A DNA stretch of 64,000 bases from a virus, in IMG/VR virus record IMGVR_UViG_3300042937_000753, positions 23,483 through 87,482 of that record. The stretch is one strand, 5' to 3'. The position numbers and the translations under genes were made by a program. The notes beneath the pieces were generated by a model that saw only the letters and a program-made list of their open reading frames with translations, ran no database searches and was not told where the DNA came from. Shown in pieces: positions 1 to 53,854 of this stretch. Position 1 is the stretch's first letter; every line of letters begins with the position of its first letter.

Positions 1-2
1 GA

Positions 3-3000
3 GCTATTAAGGATAGACTTGAAACATATAATAAGATTTATCCTAATCCTATTGATCTTTCTAAAATGAACAAAGATGATGCTGATTATGAAGAAGCTTA
101 CATAATGCATCACTCTTGGAACTGGGGAATAAAATCTGCAGTATTTTATAATGAAGTTTTTGATGATGCTAGAGATAGAATGGTTAAAATAATGAATAAA
201 CATTATCAAGAAAGACCATTGCAATCAATGACAAAAAGACAATCAGATGTTATACTTCGTCCAGAGCAAATGAGAAATGAAATGGGTCTTTTAAAAAATG
301 AGGCTGATAGTCTTCTTGCTGTAGGGGATGCTGAATCTAAAAAAGTTGCAAAAGAAAAATTAAAACAGATTGAAGCATATGCAAAATATGTTGAAGCTTA
401 TGATGAATTTAGTGAATACTATCATAGAGATAGATATTTTAATAGAGCTAAATCAATTGTACAGTCAGAAAAAGCTGAAGGAGAACAAGTTACAGATGAA
501 GAAGTTGATCAATATTTAGAAGATAGATTTGGGCCAAAAAATGCAGAGACAGAGCAAGAGATTCTTTTAAACTTAGAAAAGCAATATAATAATTTATTAA
601 AATCAATTTCAGGAAAACCTGATGATTATCTATTTACAAATAAAGTAGATGAAGGATTTGAACTTGTACTTGATTTCTATAAGTTAAATGATGAGTCTAG
701 AGAAATGGTTGATGTAATAAATCTAATGAATGATCCAAAAGGATTCTTAGATGTGTATTACAAAAATGAAAAATGGATGACTGATCTTTGGTTAAAGAGA
801 GGTGACTATTATAGAGACATTGTAACTCAAGAATTATCTCAAATTGAAGATAATGGTTTGCTTAACTATTTAGCTAACCAGGGTATCTATATGAATGCTA
901 ATGACTTCATTCTCTACAGAGATCAAGACATTCCGCCAAAAGAATTCTATGATGAAAAAAAACAGTTAGTAATTCCTGAAGGAAGTTTAGCATATGATAG
1001 ATACTATGCAATACTTAATAGATACAAAGGTCTTAAAACAATTGAAGGTATGGCTAGAAAACAAGCTATGCAAGCAGAACTAGAAGTTAGAATTGCACAA
1101 CTTGCTGAAAGAAGAGATAAAGAGATTGAAAGATTAGGTACTCAGTTTGAAGAAAACTTAGTAGAAACAACAGGAGAAACAAGAGAAGCTTGGGAGAAAA
1201 AAGAACCTGCTACAACTCAAGGTAGAACACAAGAACAAATTGATGAAGACATAAAAGGTTTAAAAGCTAATTTACAACTTATTGAAGATGCTGAATCAAT
1301 AGATGAAATATATCAATTATATGAAGCCTTTGCTGAGCAAGAATTAATTCCTGAAAACTACTTTGCACTTATTGATGAGGCAATGGTAGCTAATGAAAAA
1401 GAAGCTAAAAAATTCTTTAAATCAACAAAAGATTCTGGAGCTGATGTAGAAACAAGACAGAAAGCAACTCAGCATAAAATTACATTGCCTCAAGTTTTAA
1501 AAGATAAGATTGCTGCAGTTACTTCTGAAGAAGCTGTTACTGAAGTAGATGATACACGTCCTATTGAAAATACAGAAGCATGGAAAGATTATCAGAAACA
1601 AGTTAAAACTACAACTGAAAGATACCAAACTTTAATTGATAAACTTAAAGCAGAAAGAATTGATTCTGAAGAAGAGGTTCCTAGACCACCATCTGCTCCA
1701 GCAAAAAGAGATAGTAAAAAAGATGTAGATTTAAATGCTCCTTGGAATGAACTTCCTGAAGATTTAAAAAATGAATTACAGGAAGCCTTTAATATTTTCT
1801 TGACATCTCCTGCACCAGAAGGATTAGGTAAACCAGCTGATTTACAAAGGATTAATCCTATGCAATATGAAATGTTGCGTAACAATTGGTTAGAACAACA
1901 AAAAGGTCTTATTGATGATTATAATAATAGAGCTGTAGATGAAAAATCAGCTCAACCCGTAATTAAATATTTGACTCTTAAGAAACCTATTGATAAATAT
2001 GGTCTTACTCAACTTAGAGCCATGACTGATGAACTTCAATCCATGTTGGATAGAAATTCTAATTATGATGGTACAGCCTTAACTAATTTGGAAAAGGCTG
2101 ATATGAAGAATGATGTAAAAGAACTTCAAAAATATATTGTTTACCGAAGAGCAAACTATATGCCTAAAGATAATACTGAAAGAGTATTTAGAATCTTTGA
2201 GGAAATGGTAGTTAACAAGCAGAATGGAGTCTCAAGAATTCTTGATGCTGCAGGAAACACAACGGGTTATGAATTTCCAGGACAAGATGGTAAACCATTA
2301 CGGGTTACTAAAGTTACTGAGGAGATTGAAATTAAAATGACTGGTAAAGAACCATACTTATATGATGGAGTTAAAGAAACATACATAGGTAAAGATGGTA
2401 AACCTAGAGGTGGTCAGTTATTAAATCTATTTAGAGAACTTAAAAATGATGACTCTATAAAGACAGATGCTGATAGACTGAATTTATTTATGTCCAGTCT
2501 TGAGACTACATTAAAAGATAATAAATTACCTCAGTTAAAAAGTCAAAAGAAAGTTGATGCAATAAGAAAAGCTCTTACAAATAATTTTACAGAACAGACT
2601 CTTATTGCTGTAGTTAAAGATGTTGCTCACAGTGAATCAACTACTGCTGGAAACACTTTAGATACAATGACAAGAGATTCATTTAAAACTAATTCTGATG
2701 GAGGGTTTGTTAAACCTGAAAAACCAGCAAGAATGGCTCAGGATGCATATGATAATTTATTTGGAGATTTTGGAGTAATCACTCAATTACAAGATTCTGT
2801 AATAGATGGTAAGTATGAGATTCTTTCATCTGATGTAATTATTTATGATCCTACTTTACTTGAGTCAGGTCTTGTAGGAGCAATGGACTTAATTGCTTTT
2901 GATAAAACTACAGGTGATATTAAGATTATTGATATCAAAACAGGTAAGCCAGAAAACTGGAAAAACTTTGATACTGAAAGTGAGTACAGTAAAAAACTAA

Positions 3001-4262
3001 ACTATAGATTACAGCAGTCAATTTATAGAGCCTTGTTATTCAACATGACAGGAATATTAGCTAAGAGTATATCAATACTTCCTATTGCTATTACTACTGA
3101 TATGGAAGGTAACATTCTTTCTGCAGAATCTGCAGCTAAAGTTGTAAATGGAAATGCTATTAGAGAACTTAAAACTAAAAAGCTTACATTAGAAAATGCA
3201 TCTAAACCTGATGTAGATAAAATTAATACTTTAGAAAAACAGATTAAAGAGCTAGAAAAAGCAACAACAGTTCCTCTTCTACCAGTAGAAGATAGTGTAT
3301 TAGCTGAGAATGGTATTGTAATGAAAGCACCAAACCTACCTGAAAACTTAAAACCTGAAGGGGTAGGTGAAAAAGCTTCTGAACCTAACTTAACTGAAGA
3401 ACAGAAAAAAACAGAAATTAAAAGATTAAAATCTGAAATTGCTAAAATAGATAAGAAGTTAGCTGGTCTTAAAGATGGTGGGATCATAAATGTTGGAGAC
3501 ATGGTAACAACATCTCCTGCTTATGACAAACTAATTAATAAAAGAAAACAGTTTGAAGATAAGTTATCTGAGTTTGAGACTAAAGAAAATAAAGAAAAAG
3601 ATGAAGATGAAATAAGTGATGAAATCAAAGCCATGAAAAAAGGTGTTAAGGAACTTTTCCCTCAACCTGAAACAATCACTTCTGAAATATTTAAAAGTCT
3701 TCTTGCTAAAATAAGAAATTCTCAAACATTGGCAGACCTTGAAAATGCTTACAATGATGCTATTGTAGAAATTATTGGTGAGTCAGATATTACATTTAAT
3801 GATATGGTTGAGAATGTTTATGAGATTAGAAAATTAGCTTTAAATGTAGATACTTCTCAAGAGGAAAACATTAATAAAGGTGATTATCTTATTAGTAAAA
3901 ATCCTATCTTTACAGGATCCGTAGATGAGATTGTAGTTGTTAAAAAAGTAGCTGATGGTAAGGTTACTATAAAAGAACTTGAGGGTACAAGACAAAAAAC
4001 TTTTACAATAGCTCAGATTGCTGCAGGCTTTAGCAAAACTACAGAAGATGCATTAAAAATTGAACAAGAAGAAACTATGGGCTCTACTCCAGATGAAAAA
4101 TTAAATTCTACTATATCTAAAAATAGTCTTGAAGAGTTTTCTAAAAATGCTGATCTTATAGATAAGGCAAAACAAAATATTGGAACATCAAGAAAAGATA
4201 GATTAGCTGCATTAAAAAATGCATCTAAAGATGATAACATTAATAATTGTAAACCTAAATAA
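3..4262 (+). CDS. Giant virion/ejection protein 1 (5' partial) with a PD-(D/E)xK nuclease domain
   Basis: Frame is open from the window start through the ATG at 66. Contains GAMDLIAFD...IIDIKTG and YRLQQSIY motifs (~2880-3030) and is coiled-coil rich. Lies directly upstream of the vRNAP, as in crAss-like phages. Confidence 0.75.
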   Translation, partial: AIKDRLETYNKIYPNPIDLSKMNKDDADYEEAYIMHHSWNWGIKSAVFYNEVFDDARDRMVKIMNKHYQERPLQSMTKRQSDVILRPEQMRNEMGLLKNEADSLLAVGDAESKKVAKEKLKQIEAYAKYVEAYDEFSEYYHRDRYFNRAKSIVQSEKAEGEQVTDEEVDQYLEDRFGPKNAETEQEILLNLEKQYNNLLKSISGKPDDYLFTNKVDEGFELVLDFYKLNDESREMVDVINLMNDPKGFLDVYYKNEKWMTDLWLKRGDYYRDIVTQELSQIEDNGLLNYLANQGIYMNANDFILYRDQDIPPKEFYDEKKQLVIPEGSLAYDRYYAILNRYKGLKTIEGMARKQAMQAELEVRIAQLAERRDKEIERLGTQFEENLVETTGETREAWEKKEPATTQGRTQEQIDEDIKGLKANLQLIEDAESIDEIYQLYEAFAEQELIPENYFALIDEAMVANEKEAKKFFKSTKDSGADVETRQKATQHKITLPQVLKDKIAAVTSEEAVTEVDDTRPIENTEAWKDYQKQVKTTTERYQTLIDKLKAERIDSEEEVPRPPSAPAKRDSKKDVDLNAPWNELPEDLKNELQEAFNIFLTSPAPEGLGKPADLQRINPMQYEMLRNNWLEQQKGLIDDYNNRAVDEKSAQPVIKYLTLKKPIDKYGLTQLRAMTDELQSMLDRNSNYDGTALTNLEKADMKNDVKELQKYIVYRRANYMPKDNTERVFRIFEEMVVNKQNGVSRILDAAGNTTGYEFPGQDGKPLRVTKVTEEIEIKMTGKEPYLYDGVKETYIGKDGKPRGGQLLNLFRELKNDDSIKTDADRLNLFMSSLETTLKDNKLPQLKSQKKVDAIRKALTNNFTEQTLIAVVKDVAHSESTTAGNTLDTMTRDSFKTNSDGGFVKPEKPARMAQDAYDNLFGDFGVITQLQDSVIDGKYEILSSDVIIYDPTLLESGLVGAMDLIAFDKTTGDIKIIDIKTGKPENWKNFDTESEYSKKLNYRLQQSIYRALLFNMTGILAKSISILPIAITTDMEGNILSAESAAKVVNGNAIRELKTKKLTLENASKPDVDKINTLEKQIKELEKATTVPLLPVEDSVLAENGIVMKAPNLPENLKPEGVGEKASEPNLTEEQKKTEIKRLKSEIAKIDKKLAGLKDGGIINVGDMVTTSPAYDKLINKRKQFEDKLSEFETKENKEKDEDEISDEIKAMKKGVKELFPQPETITSEIFKSLLAKIRNSQTLADLENAYNDAIVEIIGESDITFNDMVENVYEIRKLALNVDTSQEENINKGDYLISKNPIFTGSVDEIVVVKKVADGKVTIKELEGTRQKTFTIAQIAAGFSKTTEDALKIEQEETMGSTPDEKLNSTISKNSLEEFSKNADLIDKAKQNIGTSRKDRLAALKNASKDDNINNCKPK

Positions 4263-4264
4263 AA

Positions 4265-7200
4265 ATGGCTTGTCAACTTTATACAGAAAATGATATAAGT
4301 GCATTATACTCTTTAGTGTATGGTGAGATTATGGATAGAATTCAGGATCCAAAACTTGGTAAGTTTGATAACAAAGCATTAGATAAGTTTATCAAAGATA
4401 TCTATAAAGAGTTTAAAGATGAGCCTAACGGTCTTCTTTATGTGCAGGCTATTCCTGACATGTTGGATATTGTTAAGAATGATCTTCAGATAAAGAAGTA
4501 TCTTCTAAATGATGCTAACTTGGATTTAAATAATGTTGCAAAACTATCTCTTGATTTTGAAGACTTAGATAATGTAATAAAGTTTATAACTCCAAAGACA
4601 GTTCAAAAGACTAAGAAAGAAGTTGACGGTGAAATAAAAAAAGCAAACAAAAATTCTAAGACTGTTGTACAAAATAATAATAACAATGAAATATGGTCTG
4701 CTGTAGAAGAAAAGGCTAAAGTTGATTATCCAGATAAAACAACAGGGAATATTGCCGTGGCAAAAAATCCTGAAGCAATGAGTGAATCAGAGAGAAATCT
4801 AATTGATCCACAAAAAGGGCTTTTCTATAAAGTTATCAAAACTGTTATATGGGCAGCAAGAAGAAGAGGTAAGAGTGATAATGCCATGCTTGGTGATATT
4901 CCAGTTATGCTTAAAGCTCAATCTATAAAAACTTTAGACCCTGCAGATTTGACTGATGATGATATTACTTTCCTTACTAAAAATAAAGGTTATGATATTA
5001 ATGTTGCTATTGTTTCAGATAGTAGTGGTGTCCCAATTAGATTTGATGAAGAAGGTAATGTAGTTGAAGAAGGTGGTAGAATTGTATATCAATATATTAG
5101 ACCTGTTATAAATAGAGCAGGTAAATTATATCTTGGTAACAGATCCGGTTTCTTATATAATCTTGTTCCTGCTGAAACTCTTCTTAAAAGACAATTAGCT
5201 AATGAAGCTAAGGATGGCAAACTATATGGTCAAGTTGAAAGAGAAGCTGAGTTAGCTAAAATTAAGAGAAAGCAAATTCAGAAAATGAATGATTTAGCTA
5301 AACTTAATGAAACTCTATCTCTTCAGGATGAACCAGTAATGCTTCCAATAACTGGTGGTAGTTACGGTATTGTTGAACATAAGTCAGAGTTATTATCTAA
5401 TACAGATTTTGTCAATGATTTAGAAATGATTTATACTCATGACTCAGGTGATCTTGAAGGAATGAGTTACTTTATGACTAATAGAGTAAGTGCTGGTGTA
5501 GCTGTAGATAATAGGATTTATTTACAGAGAATGGATATGCCTAAAGAACTTGCTGCAAATATAGCTAAAGTGTTAACAACTAAAGCATTACTTAATGGAG
5601 AAGCTTTAAGTCCACAAGCAAGACTTGCACATTATGATACTTTTCTTTCTAATAGAACAAAAGGTAATAATATTAAGGTTGAGATTAAACAAGAACTTGG
5701 ACAGAATGTACTTAAAGTTACCTTGATGGATCCACTTACTGGTGATGCCAGCGTTGTTGATTTAGAATCAGAAGATGCAGAAAAAATGATTGCTGATCAT
5801 TTAATGGAATCCAAAAAAATTAAAGATAAAGAAGGTAAAGTTGTAGCCGTGTATCCAGCAAATTTAAGTTATATGAAATCTTTTGCTGTTGATGGAGCTA
5901 TACAAAAAGGTGTAAAATATACTGACTATACTTTTGATATAAGCAAAACAGGAACTCAAGTAATTAAAGAAGTTCAAAAAGATTACTTTGATTTTATTAA
6001 ACCATTAGCTAAAGTAGATTATACTACTGATGGTGCAGCATACTTTGTAGCAATCAATGCTTATTTAGAATTTGCGGTTCCATTTAATTTTGAAACTGCA
6101 GAAGAAAACTTAATTGATATTGGTGTTCCTTCTGATGAACTTTTGACATCTAATGATGTAGATAATGGTAATAAGAAAGCAAAACCTGTTAAAGTTGAAA
6201 TAGAAGAAAAAGATGAAGAGACAGGTAAAGGTTTTACTATTGAAACTAAGGTAAGTACAATAGCAAACGACAGAGTTTTAGTTGCAAATTTAAATGAGGC
6301 TGATGCTGTTTTTGGATTAGGTACAACCTTTGATACAAAAGATGAAAAGATTTCTAGAGATAGATCTGGTAAAGAAAACAAATGGTATGGAGTAAAGCTT
6401 GGTACTAAAGCTAATGCACCTAAAAATTTAAAACCTCCAACAGATGCTATTAATCAAATGGTTAATAATCTATCTCAATTAAAAGGCGGAGTTGTAAATA
6501 TTATAGGTAATGATATTGCCCAACTAACTAAAGAGGGCTATAGTCAAAAAGATATAGATACTTATGTCTATAATATTTTAAGTGAGGTTGTTAAACAATT
6601 TCCTATTACCAAAATCATTAGTAATGGTCAGACTGGAGTAGCTGAAGCATCAATTAAAGCAGCTAAAAGACTTGGTATTCCAGTTAAAATTAGAGCTTTT
6701 CAAGGTTATCAATTAAGAAAAGCAGCTCCATATGCAGCAAGTGGTATTAAAACTACTAAAAATACTAGAGCAGACTTCTTAAGTAGATTCTTTAGTAAGT
6801 CATCTAAAACATATAAGAAAGCTGCCGCTAAGGTAGAAGAAACTAAAGAAGATAAAACTACTACTGTACCTAAAACAATTGAGGTTAAAGCAAGAGCTGT
6901 AGAAGTAACTAAGACTCCAGAACAACAAAAGGTATCTGATGCTAAGATAAATAGATTAGCTATTGATGATTTACTAGATGGTTCAGATATGATTCCAGAT
7001 GTTCCCCTTAATAGAAAGAAGCGGGTATCTGCAGTTATGGATCAACTTTATGGTAAACAAGGGTGGCAAGAAGTACAAAATTGGTGGAAGTCTTCTCCTT
7101 TAAAAAATGTTGTGGATGTTGAAAGACTAGGTTTAGTATTTAACTCTGATGCTTATGCAACATTTATGTCAGCGGGATCTATGCTTGCTGATGCTGCAGT

Positions 7201-10200
7201 TAAATTACGTGCACAAGGATTTGCTGCAAGAATTGAATTGTATGGAGATGCTTTACCAGTAACACTTTACCATGAGGCATGGCATGCATTCTCTCAGTTA
7301 GCACTTACTAAAGAAGAAAAAGCAAAACTCTATAATGAAATACGCACTTATGAAAAGTGGAAGAATATGGAGTATATTGACATTGAAGAAGAACTTGCTG
7401 AAGAGTTTATTGATTATGCTGCTAATGGCAAAAAACAAAAAGGTTTTATTCAGACTATATTTGAGAAACTTAAAAAGTTGATTGATTTCTTTTTTGGTAA
7501 TACAACTAAGAGAGATGTAACAAGACTTCAGGATATTCCTAATGTAAAAAAATATTATAATCAACTTTACACAGGTAAATTTAAAATAAGTACTGAGAAT
7601 GCTGAGCATAATTTAATGCCTGGATTTGAAAGACTTAACAGTGCAAAGAAAACTATCCAGCCTCTAGTAAATACCGCTAAAGATTTTGCAGAGATAACAG
7701 ATGTTCAATCTAATAAGATTGTAGATTTAGTAGACAGCTTAATGGCTAGAACATTCTATCAGTATAACAATAAGTTTAATACTACAGCAGGAGCAGTTAA
7801 ATTATTGGGTGATGTTAATAATAGAGAGAAGCTTTATTATAATTTAGAAAAACAATTAAAAGCTTTATTGGCTGCACAGCTAGAAAGAACTAGAGCTATT
7901 ACAGTTAAAAATATTGAAAGTGATAATCCAGATTATGTAACTGAACAAAAAGAAAGTGCCAAGTTAGATTTATTAATGAAAGCAGTAGAAAATTATGGTT
8001 CGGTTGCTGAAGCTTTAACTAAAAAAACTGATCGTGGTGTTGTAGCATTCCATATGCAAAGATCCAGATTTAATATCTTGAAAGATCTTTATATTGATGA
8101 TACAGAAGATGCTAGTATAGCATTATTCACATCAACTGAAGGTAATTCTATTTCTGCTAAACAGCTAGCAACTGATGATACAATGATGATGTTATCCGGT
8201 ATCTACAAACTAGAAAGGGATGAGAACGGAGACTATATAAAAGAAGAAGATGAGTATGGTGTGAAGGCTTACTCTATAGAGACAGATGACTTCGGGTTGC
8301 CCGTATTGGAACCAGTAGATGTTATGTGGAATAGAGTTGCTAGAACTCTTCAAGGTTCTATGGATTATCAAGATATGCATGATAGAATGACCGAGGCTAT
8401 TGAGAATTATCCAGAGTTTATCCAAGTTTTAGAAATGCTACCAAATCCATATACATTTGGACCTGGAGCATACAACAATAAAACTGAGTTTCAGTCAGAG
8501 ACAAATTTCTGGCAAGATCTTAAAAAACCAGTAATACCATATATCCAGTTGAACATTAATAAAACGGTTTTAGAGAAAGCTAAGAAAATTGATGGTAAGT
8601 GGATAGCTGAAAAATCAAAGTATGAATCTAGATTATCTGCAGCAAACTTTGACATTTATAGAATTGTTGCTGATTGGACAACTAACTTTAACATTGCAGA
8701 TCCTGCAACTAATAGATTTATCATTAAAGATGGTGTAAACAATTATTTGAATACAACAGAAATAATGAAAGAGTTTAGTCAGAATAAACAATTGATTCCT
8801 ACAAAAGCTGCTGAGTTTCTTGCTGCATTAGGTATTCAATTAGACATGACTAGTGCTGATATAAAGTCAATAGTAAATAGTACAAAGAAACCTTTTGCTA
8901 GTTCTTACAATATTGATTACATTTTTAATAATGTAAGACTTGTTCACTTGGCTGGTAAATCAGATGACATTGGTTTACAAGCTGCCGCAGCTCAATTTAA
9001 AAGAGATCCTTTACATTACTTAATGAATGGTCTTCCTGAAGCTATAGAGAAAGCTGCTGGTGGAAAAGCAAGTGATGTTAAAACTAAAGTAAGAGCTCTT
9101 GCTGAATTACAAAACAGATTCTCAGATGGTTATTCAAATTATGCTGTATTAACACCAGAGAAAAATAAAGTTTGGGAGCAATTTTTAGATAATACTGTTA
9201 CTAGAATTATTACTTCACTTAATAGAGCTGAAAACTGGCAACAGTTAACTACTGAAGATGCTGATCCTAATGGTAGATTCCAACACATGAGATGGTTAAG
9301 TGAAGCAAACAATCCTGCTTCAGAGTTCTCTGTAATATTAAAATCTATGTTTGATCTTGATCCAATGTCAGATACCTATGGTGAAAAGATTCCAGGTGCT
9401 AGTATTGTTCTTGAAAATATTGGAGGTACTCAAATTATCAATAGAGAAACAAATGAATCTTTAGGAACTTCAACAGCTAATACAGATGTTACAAGTAAGT
9501 TTCTACAAGAATTACATACAATGTTACAGTCAGGAGTTCAGGAATTTATGAGACATGCATCTAAGCAGACTGCAATGAACCTTAGAGCTAAGAAAGTAAA
9601 TACATATAGTGGTAAAGAATCTTCCAATCTTTATGTAGATATAATGGCATTTAGTCCTGCAAATACCGCAGGTAATAATAACTTGGGTGAATCTCAAGGG
9701 TTTAATATAATGCTTGGATATATTGCTGCTGAGGCGGGAAGAATTTTTAGATTTAAATCTAATGAAGAGTATTTTAAAAACTTCTCTGCATATAATAGAG
9801 ATGTAGTAAGAAAGGATAATGATGAAACTGTAAAAGCCGGTGAGGCCTTTACTGCATTTGATGATATCTTAACTGATACAGTACAAGGTGAATTGTATGA
9901 CATTATTAATAAAGCTATAGAAGATAAATTATCTTTTGATGAATTTAATTTACGTGACATTGTCAATGATAATCCAGCACTTAGAGTTAAAATAAAAAAT
10001 AATGTAATTGAATATTTTAATAAACTATCTCAAGCAAATTATGCAAGATTAGAAAGTGCAAGATTTGTAGACCCAAGCTTGTATGAAATGGTTTCTACTG
10101 ATGAGTTTAGTAAAGATCAAGTAGATAAAATGCTTATTAAAGCCTATACTTATAACTCTTGGATTCATAATTTTGAAACAACCATTCTAGCTTATGGAGA

Positions 10201-13200
10201 TGCGGTACAGTACAACCATGATAAAGAAGAGTTTCATAAGAGAAATGCTGGTTTAGGTTCTGGAGGTAAAAGTTTTAGATCCGATATGAGAGCAAGGATG
10301 TATATAAACAGTCCTATGTTTGAAAGATTATATGCTGATAAAGAAGGTTATAAACTTAATGCATACAACGGAACTTTAACAACAGCTATTATTAAAGAAC
10401 TTACTATTGATAAGTCTGTATATAAAGATGAATACTATGATGAGCATGTAAAAGAATATACGGCTAGATATATTAAGGCTGGTAAACCTAAAGCTGAAGC
10501 TGAAAGACTTGCTAAAGACTTGGCTGATACTGTATTAGCAGATTATTCTAATATGAAAATTGCTGATGGTCAAGGATGGTTAAATTTTGAAGCATACAGA
10601 ATGCTTAAAAACCTTGAAAGTTCTTGGTCAGCACAACAAGAAGACTTATATAAAAAGGTAATTGCAGGAGAAATATTAAATGCTTCTGATATAAAAGAGT
10701 TCTTTCCTCCTTATAAATTACAGTATTTTGGACCTATTAAAACTAAAGGTCTTCCAATGACATCCTTTCATAAGTTTTCATTAGCTCCTTTAATCCCAAC
10801 AGTCCATACTGCAAATATGCAACTTGGTCAAATACATGATATGATGCTTAATCAAAATGTTGATTATGTATTGATGGAAACTGGTGAGAAAATTGGACAC
10901 CTTGGAAACGGTGATGAGATACTTGATAAAAATGGTAATGTAGATGCCTCAGTAAACTTTACTAAAAATGTAATCTATGCTGAGTTCTTAAAAAATCAAA
11001 CTGAAGTTAACTCTAAGTTTAAAGGTAAGTCTATATTCTCTACTCAGTTAAGAAAATTAATTCTTGAAGGTTTATATGAACAAGGAGAAGTTAGTAAAGA
11101 TGTAAAACATCTAGTAGATAACTATGTAAACAGAGTAGGTGAGTATACTGAACTACTTAAGAATGAATTGATTGACCAACTTGGGTTTGCAGAAAATGAG
11201 AATGGTGAGTTTGTTCCTGTAAACAAAGACAGTATTGCAAAACTTGCATTAATGATCAGAGAAAATCTTACAAGAGATGATGTATATAGTGATAAACTAA
11301 TTGACATTATTGATGTAACTGAGGAAGGAGATTTAAGATTTGACTTATCTCTACATCCGGAGGCTGTGAAGATTGAAAAACTTTTGTTGTCATTGATTAA
11401 TAAAAGAATCATAAAACAAAAAGTTAAAGGAGAACCTCTAGTACAAAAGTCTTCAGGTTTCTATGATGGATTAATTGAATTTTCAGTTGATCTTGATAAG
11501 ATGAATCCGGAAGCAAGAGATGCTGCAGTTAAAAAATACATGGGGTCTAACTTTTTACCTACATATCATAAAGGTACAGATGGTACAACAACAGCAATGA
11601 AAGTTGCTATCTCACTTCAGGGAGATTATGAAAACCTTCTTAACCTAGAATATAAAGGAGAACCTATCTCTACTTTAGATAGACTAAATGAAGCTATCAA
11701 AGATGATGAATGGTTAGATGCTGATAATGAAGCTAACAGAAAAGCAACAACAAAAGATCCTATATATGATATAGCTTTTTCTGAATTAAAAAGTACAAAA
11801 GGAGACACTAAACTTTTTATTTTAGAATCTGATCTTACTTCAGAAATTAAAGCTAATCTTATACTAGATGATAAAAATGGAAAACGAGTTAAAGGAAGTA
11901 CTTATCAAGGAATTAAAATATTAGGAGACTATTATTCACATAAAACTTTAAAGTCTTCAGATGGTGATGCATTAGATATAATTGTTGTTAAATCTAAAGA
12001 AGATGCTCAAAAACAATATGATGCTTATATAAAAGGTGGAGCAAAACAATTTACAGGAATTGGAAATGTTATTTTTTCTAATATAGATACATCAGTTAAG
12101 AGTACTAATAGACAAGCAATAACTCTTGTAGGGGTTAGGATTCCGGTTCAGGGTCTAAACTCTATGGAGTTTATGGAAGTATATCACTTCTTACCACCTC
12201 AAGCTGGAAACATAATTATTCCACCTGCTGAGATAGTTGCTAAATCAGGAGCTGACTTTGATATTGATAAGTTATCAATCTTTATGAATAATATTGATGG
12301 AGATGGTAATGTTAGAATGCCAATGTTTGACAATGCTAAAGATTTCTATGAAGCTATTAAAGATCCATCTAAATATGAGATGAGTAAAGAACAAATGTAT
12401 AGCTTACAAAAATCTGGTCTTGAGAATCAATTAATTAATGATATTAGAAGTATTCTTGAGTTACCACAAAACTATGTGTCACTTACAACTCCAAATGGAA
12501 CTTACTTAGTTAAACCTACGGCAGATATGTTATCTGAATATGTATCAGATTATAATCCTTTTCAAAGTTTAATGTCTGATAAAAATAAACTAAGTGCTCC
12601 AGATAAAAATGGAAAACAAAAATCAGTAATCAGTCCTACTAGAATATTTGAAGCAGGTTATAACTTATATAAACATGAATCAAATGTGGTTGGTAAGAAG
12701 ACATTAGGGCTTGGTGCAATTGAAAATACCTTTAATGTAATATTTAATTCATTAGGTGCTTCAATGCCTGCAGTATATAGACATTCTGATGAAGAAGTAG
12801 ATAGAGTTTCATTCTTAGGTTTGAGACATAACACAATGAAAAAAGATGGTCAAGATGTTATTTCTCTTTCTCATCAATTTGATACAGATGGTAATAATAA
12901 AGTAGCAGATATTATCAACCAGTTAATAAACGGTTGGGTGGATGTTGAGAAGGATGCATGGGTATTCTTTGTACAAGGTAATTATGAAGTTGCTCCCACA
13001 TTACTTTACTTATTAAAGGCAGGTGTACCATTTAAAGAAGCAGTATATTTTGTTTCTCAACCTCTTGTAAGAGAGTATGTTAAAGAGAGAAGGCTTGCAA
13101 ATAGTACATTTGCTGAACCTTTAAGAAAAGATCCCGGCTTCCAAGGAGTTAACTTTAAAGCAGCAAGTAATATAATTGCTAAATACTTTAAAAACTTTAT

Positions 13201-15418
13201 TCCTGATGAGCAGTCAAGATATATGGTTGGTCAAGAAATGTATGATAACTATTTAAAGTCAAGAAAAAGAGATCATTTTAGTGAGCAAGAAATGCTTGCT
13301 TTAATTAAAAAAGCAAAAACAAATCCTGAAGTTGGGGCAAGTGATTTATCTAGAACAATGTTCTTACATTATCTCACAATTGAAAAACAAATTCAAGGAC
13401 TTACTGCATTAAAAATGGCATCTAATCCAGATACAGCTACTATGACAGATGTAGGGCAGGCAATTCAAGCTGAATCTGACATGGAAGCATTAGCAGAAGA
13501 AACTAAGATTGATCAAAATCTTAGATTAGCAATGTTAAATGACTCTGTTATTAGTTCTTTCTTTAATACTAAATTGGTACGTGGATTAGCAAAACCATTA
13601 TTTAAATTTAGATATGATGATGATATTCAAGAATATATTCAAAGCTATATGTCTGATTTTAGAAATAGTGGTATTCTTAAATCAAATTTTGGAAGAAACT
13701 ATAGAGACAGATTCCCTGTTGTATTTAGAAATGATGTATTAAGTTATTTATTCCAGAATGCATTAAGAAAATACAATCTTGGTAAAGAATATAGTTCTTA
13801 TGCTATGACAGATTCAATAGGATTAACTCCTGCTGCTGGTCTTAAATTTGGTGCACAAGTGATTGAAAAGGATGGAGTTCCAACTATGGTGGTAGATAGA
13901 GTTCAAATTGAAAAAGAATTCTTTGACAAAGCTTATTTACAAGGTAGTGAAGCTCAGAATAGTTATGAGTCTCGTAGTTTATACCCACTTCAACCAGGAC
14001 ATTTTGGTAATAATTCATCTTCTAATAAGGCAGAATATATCCGCTTTGTAATTGAGAGAGAATATTTAAGACATGTAATGCCTATAACTGAAGTTATTAA
14101 GACTAAAGAATTCCAAATGGAATTAGAAAATATTAATAAAACTAGTATTGAAACTAATGAGATTAAAAATAAAAGATATGCTTATGAAAAAATCATAGCA
14201 ACTAGAGCTTTGGACAATACATTAAATCCTTATAATCTATTTAATGATCAAAATAATGCCTATGCAGTTAGATTGGACAGAATTAAAACAGAATATAAAA
14301 ATGATTTTGTAAAAGATTATCCTGTTTTAGCTAGAATGGTTACTGAAAGTACTACAGATAGGTCAATGTACAGTCTTTATATTGATGACAAAGACATGAC
14401 AACATTTAAATCAAACATGTATAGTAGAAATTTAGAAGAGCTGAGTAATAGAAATGTGGAAAAAGTATCTGACAAAGCAGAAAATGATAGAATAAGTGAC
14501 TTCTTTTCTAAGATGACTTATGTTGCAATGATGCAGGCTGGTACAAACAAAAGCAAATATAATTTCTTAAGTTTAACAGACTTTGATAAATTCATTGATA
14601 TAATGAATGATGAAACTGCTAAATTTCTTACATCACCGCTTAAACTCAAAATGCTTATTGACTTTAAAAATAAGTTTGAGCAAGAGAATAGTCAGGCAAA
14701 TAGAACAAGAAGTAGATTTAAAAATTATCTTACGGCATTGGATGTAGAAAAATCAATTGCTACCCAAAATCTAATTGGAGAAACAGAAGAGGATGCAGTT
14801 ACTGGTGACATGATTACATCAGCAGAAAATTTAGTAGAAAGAAAAAATCTAATCCCTACTATTAATCCTAATGTGTTTGTATTTAATGATCTTTCTGGAA
14901 CTGACAAAGCATATAAATTTATTGTAGAAAATAATCCTGACATCACTTTTGTATATCAATTTAGTCTTGGTCAAAAACAAGCTATTGATAAAATGACTGA
15001 AGCTCAGTTCAACAATAAAAAAATGAAAGGTAACATACAAATTAGAAAGTATGCTAATAGTTCTTCTGTGGGTATAATTACTGGTCAAGATAGTGTTGCT
15101 GATGCATTCTCTAAATTAGATCCAAAACTATACTCAAAAAGAAAAGCGGACATAGAAAAAGCTATTGCTGAAATTAGTCAAGTAGTTGCAAATGGAGGTA
15201 AAATTGCATTCTCTATAAATGGATATGGAGATCCTACTATGATGCCTCAAGAATTATTTGTATATTTAAGCAGAAGGCTTTTTGAAGAGTTTCAGTATTT
15301 AAATCCTGGTTCTGAATTTACTAATGAAGTAAGTAAAGTGGTTGCAAAATACCAACCAGTTACTGATGCCGAAATATTAGCTAAATTTGACGGAGAAAAT
15401 AACCCATTAAAATGTTAA
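4265..15418 (+). CDS. Virion-packaged crAss-like DNA-dependent RNA polymerase (phi14:2 gp66-like), multidomain
   Basis: Motifs RIPVQG...SGADFDIDKL (catalytic DxDxD at 12254-12268), ADGQGW, FHKFSLAPL, STQLRKL and GWVDVEKD. Also an HEAWH zincin motif (7271-7285) and a SLOG-like KIISNGQTG motif (6611-6637). Confidence 0.92.
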   Translation: MACQLYTENDISALYSLVYGEIMDRIQDPKLGKFDNKALDKFIKDIYKEFKDEPNGLLYVQAIPDMLDIVKNDLQIKKYLLNDANLDLNNVAKLSLDFEDLDNVIKFITPKTVQKTKKEVDGEIKKANKNSKTVVQNNNNNEIWSAVEEKAKVDYPDKTTGNIAVAKNPEAMSESERNLIDPQKGLFYKVIKTVIWAARRRGKSDNAMLGDIPVMLKAQSIKTLDPADLTDDDITFLTKNKGYDINVAIVSDSSGVPIRFDEEGNVVEEGGRIVYQYIRPVINRAGKLYLGNRSGFLYNLVPAETLLKRQLANEAKDGKLYGQVEREAELAKIKRKQIQKMNDLAKLNETLSLQDEPVMLPITGGSYGIVEHKSELLSNTDFVNDLEMIYTHDSGDLEGMSYFMTNRVSAGVAVDNRIYLQRMDMPKELAANIAKVLTTKALLNGEALSPQARLAHYDTFLSNRTKGNNIKVEIKQELGQNVLKVTLMDPLTGDASVVDLESEDAEKMIADHLMESKKIKDKEGKVVAVYPANLSYMKSFAVDGAIQKGVKYTDYTFDISKTGTQVIKEVQKDYFDFIKPLAKVDYTTDGAAYFVAINAYLEFAVPFNFETAEENLIDIGVPSDELLTSNDVDNGNKKAKPVKVEIEEKDEETGKGFTIETKVSTIANDRVLVANLNEADAVFGLGTTFDTKDEKISRDRSGKENKWYGVKLGTKANAPKNLKPPTDAINQMVNNLSQLKGGVVNIIGNDIAQLTKEGYSQKDIDTYVYNILSEVVKQFPITKIISNGQTGVAEASIKAAKRLGIPVKIRAFQGYQLRKAAPYAASGIKTTKNTRADFLSRFFSKSSKTYKKAAAKVEETKEDKTTTVPKTIEVKARAVEVTKTPEQQKVSDAKINRLAIDDLLDGSDMIPDVPLNRKKRVSAVMDQLYGKQGWQEVQNWWKSSPLKNVVDVERLGLVFNSDAYATFMSAGSMLADAAVKLRAQGFAARIELYGDALPVTLYHEAWHAFSQLALTKEEKAKLYNEIRTYEKWKNMEYIDIEEELAEEFIDYAANGKKQKGFIQTIFEKLKKLIDFFFGNTTKRDVTRLQDIPNVKKYYNQLYTGKFKISTENAEHNLMPGFERLNSAKKTIQPLVNTAKDFAEITDVQSNKIVDLVDSLMARTFYQYNNKFNTTAGAVKLLGDVNNREKLYYNLEKQLKALLAAQLERTRAITVKNIESDNPDYVTEQKESAKLDLLMKAVENYGSVAEALTKKTDRGVVAFHMQRSRFNILKDLYIDDTEDASIALFTSTEGNSISAKQLATDDTMMMLSGIYKLERDENGDYIKEEDEYGVKAYSIETDDFGLPVLEPVDVMWNRVARTLQGSMDYQDMHDRMTEAIENYPEFIQVLEMLPNPYTFGPGAYNNKTEFQSETNFWQDLKKPVIPYIQLNINKTVLEKAKKIDGKWIAEKSKYESRLSAANFDIYRIVADWTTNFNIADPATNRFIIKDGVNNYLNTTEIMKEFSQNKQLIPTKAAEFLAALGIQLDMTSADIKSIVNSTKKPFASSYNIDYIFNNVRLVHLAGKSDDIGLQAAAAQFKRDPLHYLMNGLPEAIEKAAGGKASDVKTKVRALAELQNRFSDGYSNYAVLTPEKNKVWEQFLDNTVTRIITSLNRAENWQQLTTEDADPNGRFQHMRWLSEANNPASEFSVILKSMFDLDPMSDTYGEKIPGASIVLENIGGTQIINRETNESLGTSTANTDVTSKFLQELHTMLQSGVQEFMRHASKQTAMNLRAKKVNTYSGKESSNLYVDIMAFSPANTAGNNNLGESQGFNIMLGYIAAEAGRIFRFKSNEEYFKNFSAYNRDVVRKDNDETVKAGEAFTAFDDILTDTVQGELYDIINKAIEDKLSFDEFNLRDIVNDNPALRVKIKNNVIEYFNKLSQANYARLESARFVDPSLYEMVSTDEFSKDQVDKMLIKAYTYNSWIHNFETTILAYGDAVQYNHDKEEFHKRNAGLGSGGKSFRSDMRARMYINSPMFERLYADKEGYKLNAYNGTLTTAIIKELTIDKSVYKDEYYDEHVKEYTARYIKAGKPKAEAERLAKDLADTVLADYSNMKIADGQGWLNFEAYRMLKNLESSWSAQQEDLYKKVIAGEILNASDIKEFFPPYKLQYFGPIKTKGLPMTSFHKFSLAPLIPTVHTANMQLGQIHDMMLNQNVDYVLMETGEKIGHLGNGDEILDKNGNVDASVNFTKNVIYAEFLKNQTEVNSKFKGKSIFSTQLRKLILEGLYEQGEVSKDVKHLVDNYVNRVGEYTELLKNELIDQLGFAENENGEFVPVNKDSIAKLALMIRENLTRDDVYSDKLIDIIDVTEEGDLRFDLSLHPEAVKIEKLLLSLINKRIIKQKVKGEPLVQKSSGFYDGLIEFSVDLDKMNPEARDAAVKKYMGSNFLPTYHKGTDGTTTAMKVAISLQGDYENLLNLEYKGEPISTLDRLNEAIKDDEWLDADNEANRKATTKDPIYDIAFSELKSTKGDTKLFILESDLTSEIKANLILDDKNGKRVKGSTYQGIKILGDYYSHKTLKSSDGDALDIIVVKSKEDAQKQYDAYIKGGAKQFTGIGNVIFSNIDTSVKSTNRQAITLVGVRIPVQGLNSMEFMEVYHFLPPQAGNIIIPPAEIVAKSGADFDIDKLSIFMNNIDGDGNVRMPMFDNAKDFYEAIKDPSKYEMSKEQMYSLQKSGLENQLINDIRSILELPQNYVSLTTPNGTYLVKPTADMLSEYVSDYNPFQSLMSDKNKLSAPDKNGKQKSVISPTRIFEAGYNLYKHESNVVGKKTLGLGAIENTFNVIFNSLGASMPAVYRHSDEEVDRVSFLGLRHNTMKKDGQDVISLSHQFDTDGNNKVADIINQLINGWVDVEKDAWVFFVQGNYEVAPTLLYLLKAGVPFKEAVYFVSQPLVREYVKERRLANSTFAEPLRKDPGFQGVNFKAASNIIAKYFKNFIPDEQSRYMVGQEMYDNYLKSRKRDHFSEQEMLALIKKAKTNPEVGASDLSRTMFLHYLTIEKQIQGLTALKMASNPDTATMTDVGQAIQAESDMEALAEETKIDQNLRLAMLNDSVISSFFNTKLVRGLAKPLFKFRYDDDIQEYIQSYMSDFRNSGILKSNFGRNYRDRFPVVFRNDVLSYLFQNALRKYNLGKEYSSYAMTDSIGLTPAAGLKFGAQVIEKDGVPTMVVDRVQIEKEFFDKAYLQGSEAQNSYESRSLYPLQPGHFGNNSSSNKAEYIRFVIEREYLRHVMPITEVIKTKEFQMELENINKTSIETNEIKNKRYAYEKIIATRALDNTLNPYNLFNDQNNAYAVRLDRIKTEYKNDFVKDYPVLARMVTESTTDRSMYSLYIDDKDMTTFKSNMYSRNLEELSNRNVEKVSDKAENDRISDFFSKMTYVAMMQAGTNKSKYNFLSLTDFDKFIDIMNDETAKFLTSPLKLKMLIDFKNKFEQENSQANRTRSRFKNYLTALDVEKSIATQNLIGETEEDAVTGDMITSAENLVERKNLIPTINPNVFVFNDLSGTDKAYKFIVENNPDITFVYQFSLGQKQAIDKMTEAQFNNKKMKGNIQIRKYANSSSVGIITGQDSVADAFSKLDPKLYSKRKADIEKAIAEISQVVANGGKIAFSINGYGDPTMMPQELFVYLSRRLFEEFQYLNPGSEFTNEVSKVVAKYQPVTDAEILAKFDGENNPLKC

Positions 15419-15421
15419 AAG

Positions 15422-18400
15422 ATGTTTTGTGAATCTAAATCTACAGTATTAAAAGATCTTAAGGAAAAAGGAATACTTGGTGAATACAATGATGTACTTA
15501 ATACAATTGAGTTTGAAAAATTTAATAAAGAATTTACCAGATTCATTGAGTTAAAATATAATCTAAACACTGGAGGTGAGCTTGCCTTTAGCACATATGA
15601 AACACAAACACGTTTTCCATATAGTTCTAGATACTATAGAGATGATATACAAACAACCATATATGCTCAAACTAATGAACCATTGTTTGAAGCTCTTGAT
15701 GAGGAAAGGATAAAAGCTGATATCAAAAATGAAGTAAAAGACCGTGATGTTTTAAATGAACCTGAAGCTGAATATCCAGAAGATGATTTAATGAACCCAA
15801 TGTTCATGAGAGAGCCTTCTTATCTTCAACATAGATTTAACAGTGAAACTAAAAAAGCAATGTTATCTTTTATAGAAGGTCTCAATATTAAAGTTGTAGA
15901 TGGTCTTGATGAAATTATCCCTAGTAGCAGAAGAACATGGATAGATAAAAATGGTAATATGCAAACTAGAGAGGATCCTTTAGCTGCATTTGATCTTCTA
16001 CAAAAGTTTTTGGCTTTGAAAGAAAATATATCTGATAAAAATGTTTCTATGCAGACAGCCAATATTATTTATAGTTTTCTTGGTAAAAAATCTAAATTAG
16101 GTATTGAACTTTGGAAAGGTATAAATAGTTGGAGTAAGTATCAAGAAGTCTATGATAAGTATAATAATAAAAAACTTAGAGGACAAGAAGAACAGGTTGT
16201 AGAACAACCTATGCAATATGGTGAGAATAGTTTAGCTGAAGATAAAATAAAAGAAGTCTATGAATATGATCCAGCTAGATTTAATGCATGGGCACATAAA
16301 CAAACTATAATTGAGTTTCTTTCTAGCATGCTTATTATTGGAATTGACAATAATTATATTGGTAAAAAAAGAACTAATCCTGATATTGCTAAAGAATATT
16401 TTGAAAGCCTTGGTTATAAAGATAAGTATGCAAAAGATTGGATTACCCGTATGTTTAATAGATTCATGAATTGGATTAAAGAACATATATTAAATAATAA
16501 AGCAATTACAATTTATAAAGAAGCTGAGTTGAGAGATACTGTACTTGATATTGTTGATGATGTTTATAAAAAGAACTATATCAAGTTTATTAGAAGTTAT
16601 TATGAAAACCCTACAACTGGAAAATTCTTTAATGCTAAGGGTCAGGAGTTTGAACAAAAATTTTATGATGAAAGTCTTAAAAGAGATCCCTTTGCAAAAG
16701 AAATAGTTGATAAATTATTCAATGCTCCATATGAATATTTTTTAAGTGGCTCATTAGTTCTTAGAAAATACGGTAGAGTTATAAGAGCTTTAAGTGAAGA
16801 CTTACATGATATTGATGGTGTAATAAGTCTACAACAATTTGAAAGTGAAAAAAATGCTACTCAGTTTTTAAAATGGATTGAAGAAAGAGGTGTTCCTTTA
16901 AGTAGAGAAAGAACTACTAAAAACTCTAAGCAGTTTATAAAAGAACTGATGCCTTATTTAGAAGGACAATCTTGGTATGAAGATTTGAAAAAACAATTTC
17001 CTACTTGGACTTTTAAAGCTGCTTTCATTGGAAAAGATCATAAGAAAGGTGAATCAGTTACTATTTCTGGATATGTTGAACATCCTACAGAAACAGTTCT
17101 AGTTCAGAATGCAGATGGAAGTGCTGCTACAGATTTCTTTAATGCTGAAGATAATGGTAAAACTCTTCCTAAGAGATATGTACTTGATTTCTTTTTGAGA
17201 ACACAAGAGGGTAATTACCCAGAGGTGTTTGATCATTATTATAAAGACTGGAAACAAATCTTTGAAGCTAAGATCAACATGGGCCGTGGAAAAGACTTGG
17301 CTGATTTAATATATTTTCAACCATTTAGAGAAGATAAATACAAGTATACTAATAAAGGTTTTAGATACTTTACATTTGCTGATGATGTAATTACAAATAT
17401 GCCTGACATAACTGAATTTAAAGTTGATGAGCAAGCTATAAAAAATCAAAGATCTAAAGAAGCAGCTAATGCATTAGGTCAAAAAATTGCACAAGCTTTA
17501 GGAGTACAATATATGTACATAACAGATGCTCAAGCAAAACAGATTCTGGAGTCTAGAAAAAAAACATACAATGGTGAACCAGCTTTTTTCTTTGGAGGAA
17601 CAGTTTATATTGTTGGTGATAATGTAAACTTTGACACTGTACTCCATGAATTATCACATCCTTTATTAAGAGCAATTTTTAAAGAAAATCCAAAACTCTT
17701 TAATAACTTGTATGAAGCATTAAAAGCTACTACAGAAGGGGATATAATAATCCAGCATGTTAAAGATAATTATCCAGAGCTTAAAGAAGAAAGCCCTCTA
17801 TTTAAAGAGGAAGCTCTTGCTTATGCACTACAAAGAAAAGCAGCAAATAAAGTAACTAATCAAATTGAGTCATTAGGTTTTGAAGGATTTATTGGAAAGT
17901 TACTTGATGCATTAAGAAATATGCTTAAAAAAATCTTTGGATCTAAAACTAGAGTATCTGAGATTGATGTAAATACCTCAATTGATAAGCTTGCAGATAT
18001 GCTCTTAGAAGATTCATTTGAATATGAAACTGATTTTGTTACCAATGATGATCTTGTTGCATATGCCAGGGAGATAAAAGAAATGGCTGAAAAGCTTACT
18101 AAAGATGTCAAAGCTGAAAAAATACAAGAGGGTATCAATGAAATGTATGCTACCACTCAATTAATATATGAGAAAGCTATAAACTTTAGAACTAGATCTC
18201 CGCAGTATCAAAGAATGTTAAAAGAAGCATTGTTTGTAAAAGGAGAAACAAATGAATTACTTCCTAAAATTAAAAGAATTTTGTTTGGATATCAGACAGT
18301 GTCGGGTCAAGAAAAATTTACTATTGATGATGCTATCAAAAATGCAGTAGAAGCAGAAAGAATGAGAAATGAAGATCTTATTAATAGAGCCCGCAGTTTT

Positions 18401-23005: not shown

Positions 23006-23149
23006 ATGGCAAAAACAACAACAACAATTTCAACAAGAGCTTACTTTAAACCTAAAGTTTCCCGTCCCGGGGTACATGCTAAGACTAAAACTAGTAAGTC
23101 CAGAAAATCAAAAAACTATAAGAAATCTTATAGAGGACAAGGTAGGTAA
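23006..23149 (+). CDS. 47-aa highly basic peptide ending in KKSYRGQGR (not in the ORF track)
   Basis: ATG is 6 nt after the previous stop. Translation: MAKTTTTISTRAYFKPKVSRPGVHAKTKTSKSRKSKNYKKSYRGQGR. The YRGQGR C-terminus is typical of a small basic phage protein family. Confidence 0.8.
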   Translation: MAKTTTTISTRAYFKPKVSRPGVHAKTKTSKSRKSKNYKKSYRGQGR

Positions 23150-53760: not shown

Positions 53761-53780
53761 ATATTTTAATTAAACAATAG

Positions 53781-53854
53781 TGATCCCAACAGGAGTCGAA
53801 CCTATAACCCCTACCTTAGAAGGGTAGTGCTCTATCCAATTGAGCTATGGGACC
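53781..53854 (-). tRNA. tRNA-Arg(TCT), CCA not encoded
   Basis: GGTCCCA/TGGGATC acceptor stem, D-arm TAGCTCAATTGGATAGAGC, anticodon arm CTACC-CTTCTAA-GGTAG, T-loop TTCGACT. Confidence 0.95.

Follow-up and report, generated by a model that had tools for sequence, protein, structure and literature searches.

What might be gained by keeping cysteines (Cys) only at the facing ends of three giant and otherwise Cys-free virion proteins? The question is raised by a 64,000-nucleotide (nt) stretch of viral DNA, referred to here as the window, which comprises bases 23483-87482 of the 87,482-bp record IMGVR_UViG_3300042937_000753 in IMG/VR (CheckV completeness ~74%) and which carries three giant plus-strand genes, p1, p2 and p3, spaced by 2-3 nt. 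Together, these genes make up the block of RNA-polymerase cargo in a crAss-like phage from freshwater, a block that other crassviruses encode as one or two fused polyproteins. The comparisons presented below support the view that the retained terminal Cys are under selection and act in junction-wise pairs; it is furthermore probable, judging from the sequences, that they form intermolecular disulfides tying p1, p2 and p3 head to tail into one thread. The features on which the argument builds are these (window coordinates unless stated otherwise; aa, amino acids).

1..4262, + strand: p1 (3' part only), first in the row of giant proteins that make up the RNA-polymerase cargo block
record G000:C1:21379-27744, + strand: full p1 gene, 2121 aa, 240 kDa, its single Cys being residue 2118 (position -4)
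4248..4250, + strand: TGT codon of the sole Cys of p1 (..NNCKPK, then stop)
4265..15418, + strand: p2, assigned as crAss-type virion RNA polymerase, 3717 aa, 421 kDa, 2 Cys
4271..4273, + strand: TGT codon of p2 Cys3 (MAC..), a column invariant in a 54-sequence p2 alignment
15413..15415, + strand: TGT codon of p2 Cys3717, the last residue (..NNPLKC, then stop)
15422..22999, + strand: p3, homologue of phi14:2 gp65, 2525 aa, 293 kDa, 1 Cys
15428..15430, + strand: TGT codon of p3 Cys3 (MFC..)

An earlier note on this DNA, made by reading the translations, had reported only four Cys in the three proteins, and the computed count bears this out, with no internal Cys having been overlooked: one lies at -4 in p1, two at residue 3 and at the very last residue of p2, and one at residue 3 of p3. 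Read from the ATG at 66, the part of p1 that falls within the window has 1398 aa (1419 aa if read from base 3), and it contains the one Cys of that protein. How unusual is such a distribution? The 39 minus-strand open reading frames (ORFs) of the same record provide a background of 107 Cys in 8,851 aa (1.21%), at which rate ~101 Cys would be expected in the 8,363 aa of the three proteins, as opposed to the 4 observed (Poisson P = 6e-38). For all four to fall in the outermost 4 residues at the four facing ends, the chance is (16/8363)^4 = 1.3e-11, and that of encountering 4 Cys in these 16 facing-end positions at the background rate is 3.5e-5.

The start of p1 deserves a comment, as the longest p1 ORF in the record, which is also the database gene call P0241, begins 15 codons further upstream (G000:C1:21334-21378), reaches 2136 aa and adds Cys8. 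Because this longer ORF overlaps the preceding gene by 56 nt and because the other p1 relatives lack an N-terminal Cys (a Cys within the first 10 residues occurs in 1/52, namely in the window's own gene call), the true start is most likely that of METSSEN, giving 2121 aa and 1 Cys, and Cys8 is probably spurious. The closest relative likewise begins at the position of the internal Met.

Conservation of the terminal cysteines

Whether the MxC starts and the terminal Cys are conserved, as the earlier note had asked, can be answered in the affirmative. Among the p2 relatives in the database, Cys3 is present in 115/120, the five others having gene calls that are shorter or that use a different start, while a Cys in the last 3 residues is found in all 120 and exactly two Cys in 113/120. 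The p3 relatives possess Cys3 in 113/120 and a Cys within the first 10 residues in 116/120; the remaining four contain zero Cys, none of them has an MxC start and three are shorter than every other p3 relative listed. At the opposite, outer end of p3, no relative (0/120) carries a Cys in the last 10 residues. As for p1, a Cys lies within the last 8 residues of 51/52 relatives.

The terminal Cys persist down to ~23% identity of the polymerase core. When 220-aa segments from 44 diverse sequences were aligned, for the C-terminal end of p2 and the N-terminal end of p3, the Cys was the sole invariant column in each alignment, the mean column identity being 11-12%. An identical four-Cys layout is seen in the cultured Cellulophaga phage phi14:2, which belongs to another crassvirus family: in g067 the one Cys is the last residue, the polymerase g066 has only those of its MAC.. 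start and ..ECK end, and g065 has only that of its MSC.. start.

Could these residues nevertheless be devoid of function, either because a Cys does no harm at a chain end or because the TGT codons serve as nucleotide signals, for coupling or re-initiation, at the gene boundaries? The proximity of the partner codons, which are ≤25 nt apart across both boundaries in the window, would suit such a reading. It is, however, contradicted by an occupancy near 100% against a background of 1.2% and by three further observations: both Cys codons are in use (TGT 161 times, TGC 18 times), the distance of the Cys from the chain end varies (from -1 to -8 at C-termini and from 3 to 7 at N-termini), and the partners stay conserved across inserted endonuclease genes or when they reside on opposite strands. 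An instructive case of the last kind is Bacteroides phage DAC17: here the third giant Cys-poor protein comes from a gene on the other strand, and its chain ends in ..KECLE, with the sole Cys at -3. Since both Cys codons are used and since this opposite-strand gene keeps its sole Cys at -3, selection, as read from these genes, acts at the protein level, and a lack of function is hardly credible.

Fusion and fission of the cargo genes

If the Cys act in pairs at junctions, what becomes of them when a junction disappears or a new one arises? The polymerase-core alignment was used to scan IMG/VR, which yielded 80 crAss-like loci with 23-78% identity, whose ORFs were called mechanically (first ATG, table 11). 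Counting non-redundant junctions, Cys occurred on both sides of p1|p2 in 33 cases, on neither side in 23 and on one side only in 1, and on both sides of p2|p3 in 58 cases, with 1 discordant junction (L032), where two inserted ORFs lie in between and the next giant protein again begins with MANC. A Fisher test over all adjacent ORF pairs gave P = 5e-20 but ignores relatedness and is hence not relied on; its 26 discordant rows are mostly endonuclease-inserted junctions, plus ordinary genes following the end of p3. The earlier suggestion that the Cys pair head to tail exactly in gene order thus survives in part: the junction-wise pairs hold, whereas gene order is not the cause of the pairing, because the third DAC17 gene lies on the opposite strand and because homing-endonuclease genes can separate partners.

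The junctions lacking Cys on both sides belong to long polymerases. As their N-terminal part is homologous and colinear to separate p1-type proteins, that of the window included (14 of 18 tested), these long polymerases are, by their sequences, real p1-p2 fusions. In none of the 18 does a Cys occur at the N-terminus or at the junction, and the C-terminal one opposite p3 is retained in every case; in one example, a fusion of 5012 aa, it is the single Cys and the last residue. L048, in which p2 and p3 are fused, is devoid of Cys over at least 4206 aa, and the site aligned to Cys5 of a relative lies in continuous Cys-free sequence.

The reverse situation is met where p3 is split further, which is the case in 12 loci. 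In 11 of them, the piece following the polymerase (258-754 aa) bears both an N- and a C-terminal Cys and the next fragment begins with MxC or MxxC, and in several a GIY-YIG homing-endonuclease gene (Pfam PF01541) sits exactly between the Cys-tipped fragments. A clear example is L025, a fairly close relative, whose two fragments correspond to residues 1-133 and 644-1992 of p3, which is intact in the window. The terminal Cys therefore do co-vary, as the earlier note had wished to know: the pair is lost in natural fusions and gained at new gene splits. Of the 233 Cys in 160 non-redundant giant ORFs, which total 408,238 aa, 179 are located within 8 residues of a complete end, and the internal Cys frequency amounts to 0.013%, as compared with 1.28% in neighbouring genes.

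How many independent events does this represent? A quick maximum-likelihood tree was computed for the polymerase core from 77 rows, three loci being dropped for their short matches. On this tree, the fused or split state of p1|p2 changed at least 6 times over 60 rows, and at least 5 times over the 47 homology-checked rows; well-supported branches offered three independent pairs, all of them concordant with the presence or absence of the Cys pair. The p3 split requires at least 7-8 changes and provided five independent pairs, of which 4-5 were concordant and 0 opposite.

Some additional observations concern the inserted genes and the fragments themselves. The GIY-YIG genes (L025:15976-16569, L043:1513-2313, L045:10024-10641, L060:17339-18124, L074:7625-8293 and L081:19107-19772) are of one family. 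In L043, L060 and L025, the fragment after the endonuclease opens with a shared ~350-aa N-terminal module (MACK..), and it may be that endonuclease and module travel together. An AAA_33 kinase-like domain (E 2e-20) is found in the p3-type fragment L025:16572-18071, and an ART-PolyVal ADP-ribosyltransferase domain (E 1e-9) in L074:8283-9317; by their family assignments, the two could represent effector-like modules within the injected chain.

What the paired thiols may do

Before turning to the chemistry, it is useful to consider what p2 and p3 are. A p2 family profile built from 54 sequences matches the phi14:2 polymerase structure (PDB 6VR4, 6vr4_A) with E 1.3e-18, and p2 itself matches phi14:2 g066 by tblastn with E 1e-6, its matches in crAss-like phages being confined to the core; single-sequence PDB searches with p2 (by phmmer) and with p3 gave no match. 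By these criteria, p2 is a crAss-type virion RNA polymerase of the phi14:2 gp66 family. The first 85 residues of p3 align to residues 1-84 of phi14:2 gp65 (E 4e-7), and p3 has one hydrophobic helix (residues 2358-2376). Pfam recognized no family in p2 and only LysM in p3; PHROGs returned none for p1 or p3 and one function-unassigned family in p2; and full-length p1 matched no family in either collection. The motifs and domains are as follows.

12254..12268, + strand: DFDID catalytic motif of the two-barrel RNA polymerase, p2 residues 2664-2668
7271..7285, + strand: HEAWH (HExxH, zincin-like motif), p2 residues 1003-1007, far upstream of the polymerase core
17645-17659, + strand: HELSH (HExxH) in p3
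22013-22096, + strand: LysM domain in p3 (Pfam)

In the 54 p2 sequences, D2664, D2666, I2667 and D2668 are invariant and F2665 nearly so, and H1003, E1004 and H1007 are invariant as well. Zincin-like motifs are thus present in both p2 and p3 of the window phage, while in phi14:2 a protease-like domain has reportedly been recognized in gp65 only. In AlphaFold2 models, p3 Cys3 directly precedes the first helix of a confident N-terminal domain, and the last 9 residues of p2 form a lower-confidence coil tail on a confident domain; on these models, the p2 C-terminal and p3 N-terminal thiols should be accessible.

What, then, might the paired thiols accomplish? In the scheme that appears most probable, the three proteins have lost all internal Cys, a trait they share with other proteins that phages eject, and have kept one at each of the four ends that face a neighbour. 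In the free virion, two disulfides, p1 Cys2118-p2 Cys3 and p2 Cys3717-p3 Cys3, would then rejoin what other crassviruses make as a single chain, giving a nearly linear thread of 8,363 residues and 954 kDa. With links located within a few residues of the chain ends, such a thread could pass unfolded through the portal and the tail, each protein pulling the next, and the absence of other Cys would prevent wrong cross-links; end-near Cys and a purge of all others indeed make sense for a thread that has to traverse a narrow channel without becoming wrongly cross-linked. Oxidation would take place after lysis, and the reducing cytoplasm would open the links, thereby freeing the polymerase and its partners. 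Disulfide chemistry, oxidation after lysis, co-ejection and release by reduction are what we infer from the pattern. The source of the phage fits this scheme: lake-water metagenome runs contain its DNA (9 runs with at least half of the sampled words, 4 of them being a possible source; no RNA run was listed among the sequencing runs containing it), and lake water suggests an oxic setting for free virions, which counts as support for disulfides.

Might the two thiols of a junction bind a shared metal ion (Zn, Fe or Cu) instead, with two copies of a junction perhaps giving a four-Cys site? The evidence for pairing is silent on the chemistry, zinc would be around given the HExxH motifs in p2 and p3, and several copies of each cargo protein per virion were considered by Bayfield et al. 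(in the cargo-related text of PMC10172136). Metal binding would, moreover, require no oxidising milieu and would suit gut crassviruses. On the other hand, a single Cys at each end leaves a junction with just two ligands, its surroundings in the p2 C-terminal and p3 N-terminal alignments hold no other conserved Cys and no conserved His or Asp, and the one solved case with the same signature, that of phage A4 (see below), is a disulfide; a metal bridge is for these reasons considered unlikely.

A second alternative dispenses with pairing altogether. Each terminal Cys might independently anchor its protein to portal, capsid or tail proteins, or might operate as a 'cysteine switch' that caps the HExxH zinc until ejection. 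The many intermolecular disulfides in the tail and portal-vertex proteins of crAss001 would be in keeping with anchoring, the zincin-like motif in each of p2 and p3 with a switch, and a fusion that removes both ends would remove both anchors too. Independent anchors would not, however, be expected to spare the outer ends, which are free of Cys at the p1 N-terminus (51/52) and at the p3 C-terminus (120/120), and middle fragments of only 289-308 aa (L017, L019, L021 and L024) are Cys-tipped at both ends; L017, the sole one scanned, had no Pfam match. The cysteine switch was rejected, as it needs one Cys per protease and not pairs at every break. Taken as a whole, independent action seems slightly less likely even than a metal bridge.

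Other thiol chemistry has also been contemplated, namely a thioester or thioether link, acylation, or protein ligation or splicing that rejoins the pieces. Cys-bearing ends beside homing-endonuclease insertions are reminiscent of split inteins, and the N-terminal position is very fixed (residue 3 in the large majority of p2 and p3 relatives, as given above). The halves of split inteins, however, measure ~100 aa (N) and ~35 aa (C), and Cys that sit at -1 to -8 and at 3 to 7 are too close to the chain ends to accommodate them, and no Hint or intein domain was detected by Pfam in eight scanned fragments and inserted ORFs, so that split inteins were rejected. In addition, any of V, F, S, A, T, I, L and Q can stand between Met and Cys, meaning that the mature N-terminus is not uniform. 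Reactions of this sort are accordingly regarded as quite improbable.

Returning to the disulfide-linked thread, several points weigh against it. The independent events are few, and the independent-pairs p is 0.25 for p1|p2 and 0.06-0.125 for the p3 split, neither being <0.05 alone; only the pooled result (7-8 concordant, 0 opposite; the pooling of both tests is our own) reaches 0.05. Cys is missing from the last 10 residues of an 883-aa fragment in L081, the nearest lying at -68, and yet the next fragment starts with MSC; the polymerase of L071 contains 12 Cys and has no partner in its locus; 1-4 internal Cys occur in the DAC17 and cr108_1 proteins; and 54 internal Cys are left in the 160 giants. 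BLASTP found nothing significant between p1 and either phi14:2 g067 or DAC17 gene 56, nor between DAC17 gene 56 and g067, and the equivalence of the three would be one of position, size, fused forms and the Cys rule itself. Many crassviruses inhabit the anoxic gut, where oxidation is less obvious, and the two thiols could equally share a metal ion.

In cr108_1 (L003, 6960-18550), the annotation divides the polymerase between an ORF of 2967 aa and another of 798 aa, which lie 290 nt apart. The second begins with Leu and is the only one to end with the conserved Cys; the interruption may reflect an intron, a frameshift or a break in the annotation.

Could the rule extend further? Perhaps the cargo that phages inject is held together quite generally by Cys-tipped ends acting as a redox-cleavable 'protein suture', which would heal any break in the crassvirus cargo polyprotein, including those made by homing endonucleases, which would permit new effector modules to be plugged in as genes of their own, which would let ~1 MDa of protein, with the polymerase, enter as one thread to be cut into working parts by the reducing power of the host, and which would have arisen independently in cyanopodophage A4. 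Kinase, ADP-ribosyltransferase and acetyltransferase domains are seen in cargo fragments. So broad a generalization is tentative and, at present, rather doubtful.

Setting and known counterparts of the cargo block

The gene for a muzzle protein homologue (PF25731 crAss_MUZ) lies at record G000:C1:164-2938, upstream of the window, and p2 is situated in the structural block that follows it, between the two giant proteins p1 and p3. Also upstream of the window, in the same operon, record positions G000:C1:4896-11777 and 18081-21389 encode giant proteins of 2293 aa and 1102 aa with zero Cys, for neither of which Pfam or PHROGs offered a family; they may be further ejected or tail-lumen proteins outside the chain. 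Downstream, a very basic, Cys-free ORF of 47 aa (MAKTTTTIST..., window 23006-23149, + strand) begins 7 nt past the p3 stop. The sole tRNA gene found in the window is a tRNA-Arg (anticodon tct; 53780-53854, - strand). No match to thioredoxin or glutaredoxin families was obtained in the record, which is only ~74% complete.

In the human gut, crassviruses rank with the most abundant phages, and the window phage shows lakes to be another of their habitats. By what means ~1 MDa of protein, among it the polymerase that sets infection going, passes through the tail is called open in the pertinent text of PMC10172136 and PMC13434306. A rule by which cargo proteins are tied end to end would give a concrete model for this passage, with one thread, ordered exit and release by reduction; it would explain how the cargo genes stay functional when they are fused, split or invaded by homing endonucleases; and such a rule would provide a sequence signature for spotting ejected protein chains in uncultured phages.

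How does this arrangement compare with known systems? The closest counterparts are g067-g066-g065 of phi14:2 (g066 being PDB 6VR4) and gp47/gp49/gp50 of crAss001, which are likewise three giant proteins encoded after the muzzle gene; in contrast to phi14:2, the window p2 measures 3717 aa rather than 2180 aa and has the extra HExxH region. The presence of the phi14:2 and crAss001 cargo proteins in virions, established by mass spectrometry, is documented in the respective passages of PMC10172136 and of the Drobysheva preprint (10.1101/2020.03.07.982082), and the latter also mentions the fusion of the three proteins in some phages. Several intermolecular disulfides have been described in crAss001 virions, and the passages of PMC10172136 that contain the word 'disulfide' concern tail and portal-vertex proteins. 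In word searches of the text of that article and of the preprint, 'cysteine' occurs 0 times, and the literature searched, as far as its accessible text goes, contained no description of terminal Cys in the crassvirus polymerase block.

Schitoviridae (N4 gp50, DEV gp71-gp73) are alike in that a giant virion RNA polymerase is ejected together with partners and Cys is strongly suppressed. The earlier note had stated that ejected proteins of the N4 type avoid Cys, which is in print: for gp71 homologues, the relevant text of PMC11445570 gives 0.00075% Cys, versus 0.865% in proteomes. Their N-terminal, polymerase and C-terminal parts reside in one chain, like those of the fused crassvirus forms. They differ in having zero terminal Cys and a single polypeptide, where p1-p3 keep four conserved terminal Cys, and also in the polymerase fold, which, according to the part of PMC13434306 dealing with it, is T7-like in Schitoviridae and two-barrel in crassviruses.

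Phage genes split by free-standing homing endonucleases offer another likeness, with GIY-YIG genes between the fragments and pieces that must reunite as protein. Split phage genes otherwise generally reassemble non-covalently. The proposed reunion is also unlike that of split inteins, as there are no intein halves and a single Cys pair at the new ends would make the join.

A further comparison is that with cyanopodophage A4 (Anabaena phage A-4L), for which the cryo-EM description (PNAS 2025, PMC12002296), in the text devoted to this contact, places a disulfide between gp27 Cys1715 and gp26 Cys5 in the virion. In the A-4L record (NC_024358), gp27 has 1717 aa with its sole Cys at -3 and gp26 has 1114 aa with its sole Cys at 5, and the genes are adjacent; as in the window, a sole Cys is thus found near the upstream C-terminus and near the downstream N-terminus. 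BLASTP of p1-p3 against A4 gp26 and gp27 revealed no similarity (best E 0.55), and A4 is a parallel in mechanism, not a relative by descent. By analogy, we think that the junctions in the window would work like the gp27-gp26 disulfide. A4 differs in having one link rather than a chain, no polymerase and an ordered, pentameric pre-ejectosome, and the text of PMC12002296 that treats the bond claims neither a general rule nor covariation with gene fission or fusion. What is already known, therefore, is one head-to-tail disulfide between ejection proteins, seen once, in A4; what is new, and not described in the literature searched, is a probable chain of several conserved links, one that takes in the virion polymerase and tracks the fission and fusion of its genes.

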